This document shows, piece by piece, positions 53,679 to 58,267 of a DNA stretch of 64,000 nt; positions within the stretch are counted from its first letter, which is position 1; every line of letters starts with the position of its first letter. The position numbers were made by a program, and so were the translations under genes. Under the pieces are notes generated by a model. That model had not been told where the DNA came from. It saw nothing but the letters and a program-made list of their open reading frames with translations, and searched no databases. The stretch lies in assembly GCF_056712565.1 (NCBI RefSeq), contig NZ_CM160072.1; one strand, given 5' to 3'.

Positions 53679-54761
53679 TTAGAACTGATAAACCAGACCT
53701 ACAGCGACGATGTCGTCGGTATCAATACCAGCTGTTTTGGTAAACTTACTATCGTCAATTAAGTTGATTTTGTAATCAACAAAAGTGGACATGTTTTTAT
53801 TAAAGTAGTAAGTAGCACCGACATCGACATACTTGACTAAGTCTCGGTCACCATGAACACCAAGGTCTTTACCTTTTGACTGAAGGTAAGCAACAGATGG
53901 ACGCAGACCGAAGTCAAACTGATATTGTGCTACTGCTTCAAAGTTTTGTGCTTTGTTTGCAATATGGTTATTACCAAAAACGGTCATATTCTGAGTTTCA
54001 GAATATGTGGTAGCCAGATAGATATTGTTCGCATCATATTTCAGGCCTGCAGCCCATACTTCCGCATTTTTGCCGGAGGCATTGAATTTGCTCTTACCAT
54101 AGGCGACCTGACCGTCAGTGCGATCTGATTTAGCATAGGTTGCACCCACGCCGAATCCTTCATACTCATAAGTAGTGGAGAAACCGAAACCATCACCATT
54201 GGCTTCAGTTACGTCAGTGCGGTCATTTTTACCCTGATACTGAGCAGCAAAGTTCAGGCCATCGACCAGACCAAAGAAGTCGTTGTTACGATAAGTTGCA
54301 ACACCAGTAGTGCGACCAGTCATGAACACATCTGTTTGGGTCCAGGTATCACCACCGAATTCTGGCAGAACGTCAGTCCACGCACCGATGTCGTATGCTA
54401 CACCGTAGTTACGGCCGTAATCGATTGAGCCGTAATCACCAAATTTCAGGCCTGCAAATGCAAGACGGGTTTTGTCTTTGGAAGAACCTTGAGATTCAGC
54501 ACGGTTGCCTTTGAATTCATATTCCCACTGACCGAAACCAGTCAGTTGATCGTTGATTTGGGTTTCACCTTTGAAGCCAAGACGGGCATAAGTAGTATCA
54601 CCATCATCTGCATCATTAGAGGAGAAGTAGTGCTTGGCATTAACTTTCCCGTATAGATCCAGCTTGTTACTGTCTTTATTATAAATTTCAGCTGCCTGAG
54701 CAGACATCGCCATCAGTACTGATGCAGCTACAGCAGAAATTGCCACTGTTAATTTTTTCAT
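53679..54761 (-). CDS. nmpC: Phage-encoded OmpC-family general porin (Lc/NmpC-like)
   Basis: 360 aa from ATG at 54761 ([23 protein letters not shown] signal peptide), C-terminal ...VGLVYQF; between Q and lysis genes as in DLP12/PA-2. Confidence 0.88.
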
Positions 54762-55187
54762 TGTACGCCCTTTTTTTGAACTATTATTAAAAAATGATGT
54801 CACTGCGCGATAAATATTCATCTAATCAATGTGATTATTTCAAGATGTAAGTTTTAGTTTCTCATTTAATTTGTGAAGTAGATCTCTATTTTTATCTGAA
54901 CCTTTTCTATCTAATCCTATTCATGGCTCTTGTCTGAACAAAAATAAATCTATTAGCTAATTTATATTAATGGCACTTATTTATAAGTGCTCTATAATTC
55001 TTTAGCTTAATTTAAACAAACTAAAAATAACATTGGAAATTATTAACTGGTTATTTGTTGAAGTTTTCTTATGCATTTGTGGTGGTGTTTTGAACACTCG
55101 GTGGCATTCTCACAAATATCATTTAGTAGTTTACGTACGTAAAAAATTGGTTATGCTGTTAAGAGTGGTTACTTCGTCACACAGCTT

Positions 55188-55220
55188 AAACCCGCCGTCG
55201 AGCGGGTTTTTCCATTTTTT
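55188..55220 (+). terminator. Second plus-strand intrinsic terminator upstream of the lysis genes
   Basis: AAACCCGC-cgtcga-GCGGGTTT followed by TTTCCATTTTTT. Confidence 0.55.
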
Positions 55221-55349
55221 GAGTCTCGATATTAGCTGATAACCCAATACCTGAGTTATTCACTGACTCCGAATCTGTTACGTTTCTGCCTTTATTGCGA
55301 TACGTAGTATCCCCTTAATTTACACCCGCTTTGTCTGCGAGGTGGGGTT

Positions 55350-55565
55350 ATGAAATCCATGGATAAGTTAACAACGGGTGTCGCCTATGGTACCTCAGCA
55401 GGTAGTGCCGGGTACTGGTTTTTACAGTTGCTCGATAAAGTCACGCCCTCACAGTGGGCGGCAATAGGTGTGCTGGGTAGCCTGGTATTTGGCCTGCTGA
55501 CGTACCTGACAAACCTTTATTTCAAGATTAAAGAAGATAAGCGCAAGGCTGCGAGAGGTGAATAA
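55350..55565 (+). CDS. S: Pinholin S21 (dual-start holin/antiholin)
   Basis: 71 aa [71 protein letters not shown]. Confidence 0.9.
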
Positions 55566-56062
55566 TGCCTCCATCATTACGAAAAGCCGTTGCTGCTGCT
55601 ATTGGTGGCGGAGCAATTGCTATAGCATCAGTGTTAATCACTGGCCCAAGTGGTAACGATGGTCTGGAAGGTGTCAGCTACATACCATACAAAGATATTG
55701 TTGGTGTATGGACTGTATGTCACGGGCATACAGGAAAAGACATCATGCTCGGTAAAACGTATACCAAAGCAGAATGCAAAGCCCTCCTGAATAAAGACCT
55801 TGCCACGGTCGCCAGACAAATTAACCCGTACATCAAAGTCGATATACCGGAAACAATGCGCGGCGCTCTTTACTCATTCGTTTACAACGTGGGTGCTGGC
55901 AATTTCAGAACATCGACGCTTCTTCGCAAAATAAACCAGGGCGATATCAAAGGCGCATGTGATCAGCTACGTCGCTGGACATATGCTGGCGGTAAGCAAT
56001 GGAAAGGTCTCATGACTCGTCGTGAGATTGAGCGTGAAATCTGTTTGTGGGGTCAGCAATGA
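55565..56062 (+). CDS. R: SAR endolysin R21 (lysozyme)
   Basis: 165 aa with N-terminal signal-anchor-release domain ([20 protein letters not shown]) and lysozyme domain. Confidence 0.9.
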
Positions 56063-56520
56063 ACAGAGTAACCGCGATTATCTCCGCTCTGGTTATCTGC
56101 ATCATCGTCTGCCTGTCATGGGCTGTTAATCATTACCGTGATAACGCCATTACCTACAAAGCCCAGCGCGACAAAAATGCCAGAGAACTGACGCTGGCGA
56201 ACGCGGTAATTACTGACATACAGATGCGTCAGCGTGATGTTGCTGCGCTCGATGCAAAATACACGAAGGAGTTAGCTGATGCGAAAGCTGAAAATGATGC
56301 TCTGCGTGATGATGTTGCCGCTGGTCGTCGTCGGTTGCACATCAAAGCAGTCTGTCAGTCAGTGCGTGAAGCCACCACCGCCTCCGGCGTGGATAATGCA
56401 GCCTCCCCCCGACTGGCAGACACCGCTGAACGGGATTATTTCACCCTCAGAGAGAGGCTGATCACTATGCAAAAACAACTGGAAGGAACCCAGAAGTATA
56501 TTAATGAGCAGTGCAGATAG
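56059..56520 (+). CDS. Rz: Spanin inner-membrane subunit Rz
   Basis: 153 aa from ATG overlapping the R stop ([21 protein letters not shown]...). Confidence 0.85.
56279..56461 (+). CDS. Rz1: Spanin outer-membrane lipoprotein Rz1 (embedded in Rz, +1 frame)
   Basis: 60 aa with lipobox LVVVGC and proline-rich tail, entirely inside Rz. Confidence 0.8.
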
Positions 56521-56551
56521 AGCTGCCCATATCGATGGGCAACTCATGCAA

Positions 56552-56845
56552 TTATTGTGAGCAATACACACGCGCTTCCAGCGGAGTATAAATGCCTAAA
56601 GTAATAAAACCGAGCAATCCATTTACGAATGTTTGCTGGGTTTCTGTTTTAACAACATTTTCTGCACCACCACAAATTTTTGCTGCATCGACAGTTTTCT
56701 TCTGCCCAATTCCCGAAACGAAGAAATGATGGGTGATGGTTTCCTTTGGTGTTACTGCTGTAGGTTTGTTTCCAACAGTAAACGTCTGTTGAGCACATCC
56801 TGTAATAAGCATTGCCAGAGCGGCAGAAAACAACATTTTTTTCAT
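56552..56845 (-). CDS. bor: Bor outer-membrane lipoprotein (serum resistance)
   Basis: 97 aa from ATG at 56845, MKKMLFSAALAMLITGCAQQTFTV...EARVYCSQ. Confidence 0.88.
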   Translation of the reverse strand: MKKMLFSAALAMLITGCAQQTFTVGNKPTAVTPKETITHHFFVSGIGQKKTVDAAKICGGAENVVKTETQQTFVNGLLGFITLGIYTPLEARVYCSQ

Positions 56846-57325
56846 CTTATTATCCTGCATTGTTAAAAACGGCAGAATCCTATGTGACAACAATTAAACG
56901 ATAGTTAAATGGATTGATGAAAATTAAAACTACACAGGTGGGCTCAGACTATTGGAGGAAGTTGGGGACACTCAGAATCCTGTGGAATGAAATAAACCGG
57001 TCTATCCGTCCATTACCCTTTTAGCTGCGCTGTATCGTCGCCGTATTCCCGCATTAACCATGACCGTAGCCCGACGGGGAATTCCTTCTGCGTGAGTGTG
57101 CGGGAATAATTAAAAACGATGCACACCGGGTTTTTACCGCGTTAATGATTCGCGGGTTTATCCCGGTGCGATGGTGGAAGAAACAGGAAGCTGTATTACA
57201 GAAAGTGCTACTACTGTATCCCGATGCGATGTATGTAATGTGAGTCAGATAATGGCACAGGATGTGGTGATGTGGCAGTCTGGAACACAGGATATATTGT
57301 CAGAATAAGACCCGTAGGAATAAAA

Positions 57326-57652
57326 ATGAAAAGACGCCTTTTACTACTTTTTCTGTTATCTGTCCTGGCAGTGGGATGCTCGCAGCAAAAAGCTGATGAG
57401 CCCCGGCAATTAGTGACGGTGTATCCACGATATCCGGAATATGCTGCAGCAAATTATATCAAGGGGCTGGTTGAGGTTAAGTTCGATATTGGTGCTGATG
57501 GGACTGTGACACGGATCGTTTTTCTCCGCTCAGAGCCTCATAATTTGTTTCGTGATGAAGTGGTGAAGGCCATGGCGAAATGGCGATTTGAAAAGAATCG
57601 CCCCTGTCAGGGAGTGAAGAGACAATTTATCTTTACGCCGTCACGTCCTTGA
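57326..57652 (+). CDS. Lipoprotein with TonB-C-terminal-like domain (moron)
   Basis: 108 aa from ATG after AGGAA RBS; signal peptide plus lipobox (LAVGC); YPRYPEYAAANYIKGLVEVKFDIGADGTV resembles the TonB C-terminal fold. Confidence 0.5.
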   Translation: MKRRLLLLFLLSVLAVGCSQQKADEPRQLVTVYPRYPEYAAANYIKGLVEVKFDIGADGTVTRIVFLRSEPHNLFRDEVVKAMAKWRFEKNRPCQGVKRQFIFTPSRP

Positions 57653-57774
57653 TGCTTCCAGGTAGAGAGGGGCTGGAAGCAGGAGAAAAATGAAAGAGCC
57701 AGCGGTTATATTTTTGTCATGGCTGACGAGGAATGATGGAAGAAGGCGTTGTATGCCACACAACGCCTCACTGT

Positions 57775-58128
57775 TCATTTCTTCTTTTTCTCTGGTGGAA
57801 CCCGATGAATAAGAGTTGCACTGGTTTCCGATGAGATGGCGATATACTCGGGCAAAGTATGCTGGCAGTTTTCCAACTGGTCAAAAATACCTGCTCTCGT
57901 CTGTTGCAATGCCTGCAGCATGCGGCGGCAATGCGCCTTGCTTTTACTAACCATCTTTCCTTCCTCTATCAGTCGCTGCGTGAACTCATCATGGAATACC
58001 AGGTAAATGCGGATGTTATCGGTTTTGGCTACGCAGCATAGTACAAAACGGACAGGTGCATCCCGGGACGGGGGAGGCGTCACATGTCCCTGTGATGGTT
58101 GTTCCGGGTAATGTACTGTGTGGGGCAT
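57775..58128 (-). CDS. Hypothetical protein (possibly shorter, from internal start)
   Basis: 117 aa ORF between the lipoprotein gene and cos; no recognised motif. Confidence 0.25.
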   Translation of the reverse strand: MPHTVHYPEQPSQGHVTPPPSRDAPVRFVLCCVAKTDNIRIYLVFHDEFTQRLIEEGKMVSKSKAHCRRMLQALQQTRAGIFDQLENCQHTLPEYIAISSETSATLIHRVPPEKKKK

Positions 58129-58267
58129 AAAAATGTCCGATAATTTTACTTTCTACCGCAGTTAGTTGATTCGTTGGTCCTGGTAGCACATTGGGCGAGG
58201 ATTTAAATGCCAGGCAACTGAAGGATGATGTCGCAAGGGAGATAGCGAGAATATTTCTGATTTTCAT
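58016..58267 (-). CDS. Hypothetical small secreted Cys-rich protein
   Basis: 83 aa from ATG at 58267 with signal-peptide-like N-terminus (MKIRNILAISLATSSFSCLA); overlaps the previous ORF, only one is likely real. Confidence 0.3.
   Translation of the reverse strand: MKIRNILAISLATSSFSCLAFKSSPNVLPGPTNQLTAVESKIIGHFYAPHSTLPGTTITGTCDASPVPGCTCPFCTMLRSQNR

Follow-up and report, generated by a model that had tools for sequence, protein, structure and literature searches.

The present analysis concerns part of a lambdoid prophage in E. coli of pathogenic type, namely its right arm, located at positions 53679-58267 of a window of 64,000 nucleotides (nt) from NCBI RefSeq assembly GCF_056712565.1 (contig NZ_CM160072.1), in which a lysis cassette is accompanied by genes for a porin, for the lipoprotein Iss/Bor, for a lipoprotein that resembles the C-terminal domain (CTD) of TonB, and for a small secreted protein of 83 amino acids (aa) that annotation appears to have overlooked (Table 1). 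The prophage is integrated at icd and adjoins this gene, the attachment site of phage 21. The best explanation for the region as a whole, to which we assign a probability of roughly 0.6, is that of an accessory ("moron") belt in which five lysis genes lie between four independently acquired genes for envelope products. RefSeq agreed for every gene listed here except the 83-aa open reading frame (ORF), and a scan of positions 52800-58800 with Rfam retrieved no match at E ≤ 0.1.

Over positions 53400-58700, the chromosomes of E. coli S88, ATCC 11775, avian pathogenic E. coli (APEC) and other strains matched the sequence at 100% identity, and 343 of 5426 complete E. coli genomes carried at least 80% of this stretch; the remainder of the window matched S88 at 99.99% identity, with an offset of 67 nt. 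The segment from S to cos is the same as in phage 21, and positions 57100-58415 correspond base for base to the right end of this phage (OL657228). Where the window has a Q-porin-S module, phage 21 has Q21 and two tRNAs. The same module occurs in PA-2, in DLP12 and in inducible gut coliphages such as ev017, 2G7b and 4A7, with identities of 89-99.9%.

Table 1. Genes and predicted sites of the prophage right arm and its surroundings, in window coordinates
Feature	Position	Strand	Basis
icd	~37240-38490		
Integrase	38604-39746		
Late antiterminator Q (QuuD type)	53092-53490	+	Pfam Phage_antitermQ 7.7e-54; RefSeq quuD
Intrinsic terminator 3′ of the porin gene	53523-53540	-	GGGGCGTTTCCACGCCCC then T-run; terminator scan and sequence
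Candidate terminator (hairpin and T-run) facing rightward transcription from Q	53628-53668	+	Read from sequence, putative
Lc/NmpC/OmpD-type general porin, 360 aa	53679-54761	-	Pfam Porin_1, NCBIfam, identity to PA-2 Lc
Candidate late promoter PR′	54970-54998	+	ATGGCA-17-TATAAT, 10/12; promoter scan, putative
Candidate terminator tR′	55188-55218	+	AAACCCGCCGTCGAGCGGGTTT then T-run; ~210 nt 3′ of candidate PR′
S21-type pinholin/antiholin	55350-55565	+	Pfam Phage_holin_2_1 2e-35; phage 21 annotation
Signal-anchor-release (SAR) endolysin	55565-56062	+	Pfam Phage_lysozyme 1.3e-45; phage 21 annotation
i-spanin Rz	56059-56520	+	Pfam Phage_lysis 1.6e-53
o-spanin Rz1, embedded in Rz	56279-56461	+	Pfam Rz1 2.9e-20
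Iss/Bor outer-membrane lipoprotein, 97 aa, lipobox LITGC	56552-56845	-	Pfam Lambda_Bor 1.1e-30, full length; PHROG 260
Lipoprotein consisting of the TonB CTD alone, 108 aa	57326-57652	+	Pfam TonB_C 7.3e-13; TIGR01352
Unannotated protein with predicted Sec secretion, 83 aa	58016-58267	-	Homologues, dN/dS, conserved Shine-Dalgarno sequence and start, intact in variant L005
Fur-box-like 7-1-7 palindrome	58366-58380	n/a	2 mismatches to TGATAATnATTATCA; beside cosQ
cos	58386-58427	+	cosQ GGGTCCT 58386-58392; cosN cohesive end GGGCGGCGACCT 58416-58427
Terminase small subunit (Nu1 type), right boundary of the accessory belt	58604-59152	+	RefSeq

Envelope genes between Q and cos

The original prediction had placed an OmpC-family porin gene between Q and S, on the strand opposite to late transcription, and this was borne out. 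The protein covered the complete 16-strand Porin_1 profile of Pfam (positions 1-337 of 337, E=1.9e-151), exceeded the NCBIfam cutoff for the OmpC subfamily (521 bits, cutoff 484) and matched OmpC/OmpK36 structures at E~1e-137, and it is named "porin OmpC" in RefSeq. It shared 90.7% of its amino acids with the Lc porin of phage PA-2, and the identity with NmpC of P7 was 81%. A Sec signal peptide precedes the mature start AEIYNK, and the C-terminal end VGLVYQF closes with the Phe that serves as the aromatic residue for outer-membrane assembly. PA-2 Lc, DLP12 NmpC and Salmonella OmpD occupy the same Q-S location in the same opposite orientation, and the intergenic DNA around the porin gene retained 89-95% identity to PA-2 and DLP12. 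The porin is, consequently, an allele of a classic lysogenic-conversion gene that was already known, and no substantive difference from Lc, NmpC and OmpD was found, the sole addition being the putative PR′ and tR′ elements between the porin gene and S. The Lc porin of PA-2 is a lysogenic-conversion factor that is expressed in lysogens and displaces OmpC and OmpF, so that phage receptors are lost; by analogy, the porin of the window would act in the same manner, displacing OmpC and OmpF and removing phage receptors.

The Bor gene expected downstream of the spanin genes was likewise recovered there, as the gene that RefSeq names "increased serum survival lipoprotein Iss" (iss). Its lipobox lies within MKKMLFSAALAMLITG↓C, the phage 21 copy is identical, and it shares the Lambda_Bor domain, the lipobox and the place after Rz on the opposite strand with lambda Bor and with the Iss proteins of ColV plasmids and chromosomes, from which no difference was noted. 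This gene is already known, and its product would promote serum survival as its characterized relatives do. Both of these genes, for the porin and for Iss, belong to the textbook repertoire of lysogenic conversion and contribute no novelty.

It had also been claimed that the four genes act together to remodel the outer membrane of the lysogen, and this part of the original prediction was not supported, since they behave as independent modules that are carried separately. A co-adapted unit of this kind would be suggested by the presence of the four genes within 4.6 kb around the lysis cassette, by the predicted delivery of all their products to the envelope, and by the almost perfect linkage of the 21-type allele of the TonB-like gene with the small ORF (1224 versus 1222 genomes). 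Nevertheless, tight linkage was restricted to this one pair. Phage 21 carries the part comprising iss, the TonB-like gene and the small ORF without the porin, with tRNAs instead; in the JLK-2012 and Stx1a phages, the TonB-like gene is present but the small ORF and Bor are both missing; and prophages of the TA464 type have the small ORF and neither the TonB-like gene nor Bor. Among the 5426 genomes, the whole cluster was found in 343, against 1222 for the small ORF and 1616 for the TonB-like gene, and the four genes also differ in strand and in putative transcription unit. A functional unit is thus very unlikely, and the region is best described as a known moron hot spot between Q and cos that has been filled by independent insertions.

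The variability of this belt is illustrated by phage 434B (locus L024), which carries a gene for an LpxR-type lipid A deacylase, another outer-membrane moron, beside a Q fragment (positions 363-1322), as well as a DUF3950 gene in the slot before cos on the strand opposite to late transcription.

A predicted lipid-anchored TonB C-terminal domain

The lipoprotein with a TonB-C-like domain announced by the original prediction is composed of the TonB CTD alone. At its N-terminus, a signal peptide ends in the lipobox AVGC (MKRRLLLLFLLSVLAVG↓CSQQ), with cleavage at Cys18, and the mature protein of 91 aa begins with CSQQKADEP. The residue at +2 is Ser and not the Asp retention signal, for which reason the protein is predicted to be sorted to the outer membrane and is probably anchored there, with only ~8 residues linking Cys18 to the TonB_C domain. 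The domain aligned with residues 151-230 of E. coli TonB at 40% identity (32/80 residues), preserving the YP motif (Y36-P37, corresponding to TonB Y163-P164) and the aromatic core (F180, G186, F202, W213, Y215 replaced by F, and F230). Structure prediction had been named beforehand as the analysis that would bear on this assignment, and the fold held: the AlphaFold2 (AF2) model, built with 27 homologues, reached a mean predicted local distance difference test (pLDDT) score of 87.6, with core values >96, and Foldseek retrieved as top PDB matches the CTDs of TonB (1U07 and 2GSK_B), at template modelling scores of 0.90-0.92 and a root-mean-square deviation of ~1 Å. The best structural matches include chains of TonB crystallized with BtuB and FhuA. 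No TonB-fold match was detected in the BFVD viral structure library at E≤0.001.

In comparison with TonB (PDB 1U07, 2GSK, 2GRX), the phage lipoprotein shares the CTD fold, the YP motif and the aromatic core, but it lacks the N-terminal transmembrane anchor and the proline-rich spacer and carries a lipobox anchor instead. For this reason, its identity as a TonB energy transducer was rejected, since a protein without anchor and spacer cannot couple to ExbB/ExbD. It is a new architectural arrangement of a known domain. Selection on the gene is suggested by a dN/dS ratio of 0.12 between two E. coli phage alleles, the 21-type and the 72%-identical Stx/JLK-2012-type, and the lipobox Cys is conserved in most of its short homologues; moreover, many short TonB_C proteins with a signal peptide or a lipobox were found in a wider protein set. 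The gene is present in classic phage 21 and in 1616 of the 5426 complete E. coli genomes (~30%), lineages of extraintestinal pathogenic E. coli (ExPEC) and APEC included. In each of three phage backbones that are unrelated to one another, namely phage 21, the JLK-2012 and Stx1a phages, and a Klebsiella phage, it is found in the same slot, on the late strand past the lysis genes and ahead of the terminase. Despite this distribution, the literature searched on phage TonB-like proteins contained no functional study, and the genome announcement of phage 21 is silent on the gene, in agreement with the earlier view that both the lipoprotein and the small ORF are uncharacterized.

The most likely role of this protein, which we propose tentatively and by analogy, is competitive interference with the coupling between TonB and its transporters, resulting in the exclusion of TonB-dependent phages and bacteriocins. 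In such a mechanism, an unenergized mimic of the TonB CTD would be held just under the outer membrane, where TonB boxes emerge, and would either compete with TonB for these boxes or pair with the TonB CTD, thereby dampening the TonB-dependent entry of phages of the T1/phi80 type, colicins and microcins. Interference of this type is plausible because periplasmic fragments of TonB are dominant-negative: according to PMC9841981, in which Howard et al. 2001 is cited, an overexpressed periplasmic TonB domain inhibits TonB-dependent import, with FecA- and FhuA-dependent transport affected. Those fragments, of which the phage lipoprotein would be the natural counterpart, were likewise periplasmic TonB CTDs, soluble or tethered, without the energizing N-terminus, although they were overexpressed pieces of the host protein, whereas the phage gene is diverged, natural and predicted to encode a lipid-anchored product. 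A second precedent is the Llp protein of T5, described in 10.64898/2026.03.26.714494 as a small lipoprotein in the inner leaflet of the outer membrane that binds FhuA. Llp is also a small phage-encoded outer-membrane lipoprotein that meets a TonB-dependent transporter from the periplasmic side, and a similar mode may apply to the TonB-like lipoprotein, which has the features of the Llp/Cor type in being a small phage-encoded lipoprotein with an outer-membrane sorting signal (predicted localization). Nonetheless, Llp and Cor (T5; phi80, N15 and HK022) address one receptor, FhuA, whereas a mimic of the TonB CTD could in principle address the TonB box common to all such transporters; a PHROG search with the TonB-like protein returned no match annotated as Llp or Cor.

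Several observations weigh against interference. Three residues of TonB, R158, Q160 and R166, are replaced in the phage lipoprotein by T31, Y33 and Y39, and Q160 was not kept by any member of the short-lipoprotein family; these residues of TonB are implicated in contact with transporters, and their replacement indicates that binding to the TonB box may be altered or lost. In addition, the gene points the same way as the late operon in each of three phage lineages, and a consensus scan upstream of it disclosed no recognizable sigma-70 promoter, so that its expression in lysogens is not evident and may be restricted to the lytic cycle. Neither expression nor phenotype data were found for this gene or for the small ORF.

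The same late orientation, together with the position directly after the lysis cassette and the lack of a promoter-like site upstream, would fit a product that is made late and assists lysis or the breakdown of the envelope, such as a peptidoglycan- or outer-membrane-associated helper of the pinholin, SAR endolysin and spanin pathway, and PHROGs indeed files the protein under "Rz-like spanin" (PHROG 1267), an assignment that both disfavors interference and favors lysis. This label, however, is an annotation transfer, the complete Rz/Rz1 spanins are present in this prophage, and the Klebsiella phage has separate spanin candidates. Spanins, moreover, are not usually pictured as globular proteins comparable to the TonB CTD, which is the fold predicted here, and lambda lyses its host without a TonB-like gene. 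Identity as an Rz-like spanin is therefore not credible, in view of the complete Rz/Rz1 pair and the globular TonB fold, and the broader role as a lysis accessory seems rather unlikely.

If competitive interference with TonB is true, the lipoprotein would affect host range in phage therapy, sensitivity to colicins and microcins, the uptake of siderophore antibiotics and the iron economy of lysogens, and a TonB decoy would represent a general principle of exclusion, as opposed to the one-receptor blockers Llp and Cor. The combined proposal, in which the lipoprotein is a natural TonB decoy giving broad protection and the four-Cys periplasmic protein described below founds a new family of envelope conversion factors, is put forward with slightly less confidence still than interference taken by itself.

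With regard to other genes of the same prophage, the sitABCD iron/manganese transporter is located at its far right end, past the tail genes and beyond the window (S88 NC_011742.1 1224155-1227604; L026 17756-21205), so that the element combines iron-uptake cargo with the TonB-like gene. The tail region in S88 contained a lambda-type J and no cor gene, on which ground a cor gene or a host range based on TonB-dependent receptors was rejected for this prophage.

An overlooked small protein beside cos

The possible small signal-peptide protein noticed before cos in the original prediction is, on comparative grounds, a real gene under strong purifying selection. The ORF lies 148 bp from the cosN cut, and its homologues, of 81-85 aa (a few of them called with a longer N-terminal extension) and 41-77% identity, were retrieved from seven genera: Escherichia, Salmonella, Klebsiella, Citrobacter, Buttiauxella, Pantoea and Phytobacter. 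Pairwise dN/dS values were 0.09-0.20, with dS saturated, and three elements were conserved among the homologues: the start codon, "atcatcaR" in front of it, and a Shine-Dalgarno (SD) sequence rich in purines. An upstream start giving 106 aa was rejected, since the 83-aa start and its SD sequence are common to the homologues. The gene is absent from the RefSeq annotation of S88 and from the curated record of phage 21. The protein had no match in Pfam, NCBIfam, PHROGs, PADLOC or the sequences of the PDB, lax thresholds and profile mode included, and no paper on it was found in the literature.

In the place of this gene, RefSeq, the curated phage 21 record (CPT) or both annotate ORFs for hypothetical proteins, at 57690-57812 (+, 40 aa), 57859-58041 (+, 60 aa) and 57775-58128 (-, 59/117 aa). 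That these are the real genes and the 83-aa frame is not would be favored by the annotation itself and by the existence of PHROGs for two of them, which were, however, built from near-identical gene calls. Distant DNA searches with positions 57650-58360 returned only copies of at least 95% identity, which made codon-level tests on the annotated plus-strand ORFs impossible, and the single variant at 95% was used instead. In this E. coli variant (L005), the 83-aa frame carries three substitutions but remains unbroken, while a 1-nt insertion and a stop codon break all three of the rival ORFs. The stretch of these ORFs had no divergent homologues anywhere, as opposed to the homologues in seven genera and the low dN/dS of the 83-aa protein. 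Taken together, the comparison suggests that the three hypothetical-protein ORFs are probably not genes, and it is extremely unlikely that the 83-aa ORF is the spurious one.

The N-terminus, as read from the sequence, is a signal peptide of n-h-c layout (MKIRNILAISLATSSFSCLA↓FK) with a predicted signal-peptidase I site CLA↓FK, in which the residue at -1 is small and the one at -3 is tolerated, and throughout the family this site takes the form [C/A/S]-[L/M/F]-A↓F, in which A20 and F21 are invariant. Some UniRef labels would instead make the product an outer-membrane lipoprotein with a lipobox SFSC at Cys18, the name "Lipoprotein" being used in some sources. Cys18 is in fact invariant in the closer homologues, and the sequence fits the permissive PROSITE lipobox pattern; in divergent members, however, this residue is replaced by Ala or Ser (ALA↓F, AMA↓F, SFA↓F, SLA↓F), producing a classic signal-peptidase I site, and it is the pair Ala20-Phe21 that never varies. 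The lipoprotein assignment was consequently rejected and can be considered improbable.

Export and cleavage after CLA would release a mature protein of 63 aa, whose N-terminal half is variable and which also contains a predicted short helix and, towards the C-terminus, the invariant motif G-x-C-x3-PVxGCxCxFCx[MI]LR with four Cys. Our working guess is that of a periplasmic envelope factor, either disulfide-bonded or metal-binding, in which the four Cys would form two disulfides or a metal site and the protein would act on an envelope target. Two observations are unfavorable: the AF2 model (18-sequence alignment) was uninformative, with a pLDDT of 48.8, so that no specific activity was supported; and the E. 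coli variants P0038 and P0041 lack the first Cys and differ over a short stretch. In these two variants, ...PGTTITGTCDAS... becomes ...PEQPSQGHV-TPP..., which is what the overlapping -1 frame encodes. This indicates paired frameshifts by which the first Cys is lost and the C-terminal motif restored, and the two may be real variants or assembly errors.

The genetic contexts of the gene are diverse. In E. coli, it belongs to lambdoid prophages whose Q/holin backbones are of three kinds, and in each of them it is located between the lysis genes and cos, on the strand opposite to late transcription. The Salmonella copies lie in an island with a serine protease autotransporter of Enterobacteriaceae (SPATE), a PPC-domain protein, Bor, an omptin and NEL/SET effectors, and those of Klebsiella in 66 plasmids, mostly conjugative, in which most copies are unannotated. 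In Citrobacter, the gene stands alone beside icd (C. koseri) or beside a fecIR-receptor cluster. Remnants similar to cosN and cosQ were recognized upstream of the gene in Klebsiella (L009 6001-6252) and in C. koseri (L023 5001-5300), from which it would appear that the gene arose at the right ends of lambdoid phages and was retained after prophage decay, and such retention argues for a function beneficial to the host. As to the C. koseri copy, its place directly beside icd fits the residue of a decayed prophage that had been integrated there.

The 83-aa gene has thus been missed systematically by RefSeq and by expert annotation alike, and overlapping ORFs that are probably spurious were called instead. 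Its recognition would correct the annotation of phage 21 and offers to envelope biology a widespread, undescribed family of small proteins, apparently still present in Salmonella and Citrobacter after the decay of the prophage and spread on conjugative plasmids of Klebsiella.

Late transcription, cos and other prophage features

Of all promoter matches on the plus strand of the region, the best lies inside the AT-rich gap between the porin gene and S, and this element and the hairpin that follows it look like PR′ and tR′; both were conserved in the DLP12 segment of the viable phage 434B. With these candidates located between the porin gene and S, the porin gene would stand between Q and PR′, uncrossed by the late transcript, and it is most likely upstream of the late promoter and outside the late transcript. 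Between Q and the porin gene, the two terminator-like hairpins of Table 1 are convergent.

A lambda-type cos closes the right arm, with cosQ upstream of a 12-nt cohesive end; the phage 21 record ends, in ungapped identity, at window position 58415, immediately before it. A few bases from cosQ and ~100 nt upstream of the small ORF, a Fur-box-like palindrome was observed, which is perfect at the same place in 434B (L024 7526-7540) and in the TA464-type prophages (L020-L022 4866-4880). The scan for Fur boxes, allowing 2 mismatches over the 64 kb, gave 1 match versus 0.31 expected, which is not significant alone; a Fur box is accordingly given as a side note only, and the palindrome may belong to cos, serve as an operator or have arisen by chance.

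Elsewhere in the prophage, the interval 46073-47379 (-) encodes a DUF1828 protein of 250 aa and, overlapping it, a hypothetical protein of 185 aa, which may form a prophage defence pair; this slot, between N and cI, is the one in which lambda has rexAB. The sieB gene is located at 44766-45347. The replication gene O (48876-49775) is an intact ORF of 299 aa in the window, and the same gene is marked as frameshifted in the RefSeq annotation of S88, from which the window differs inside O by ~67 nt around 49240-49290.

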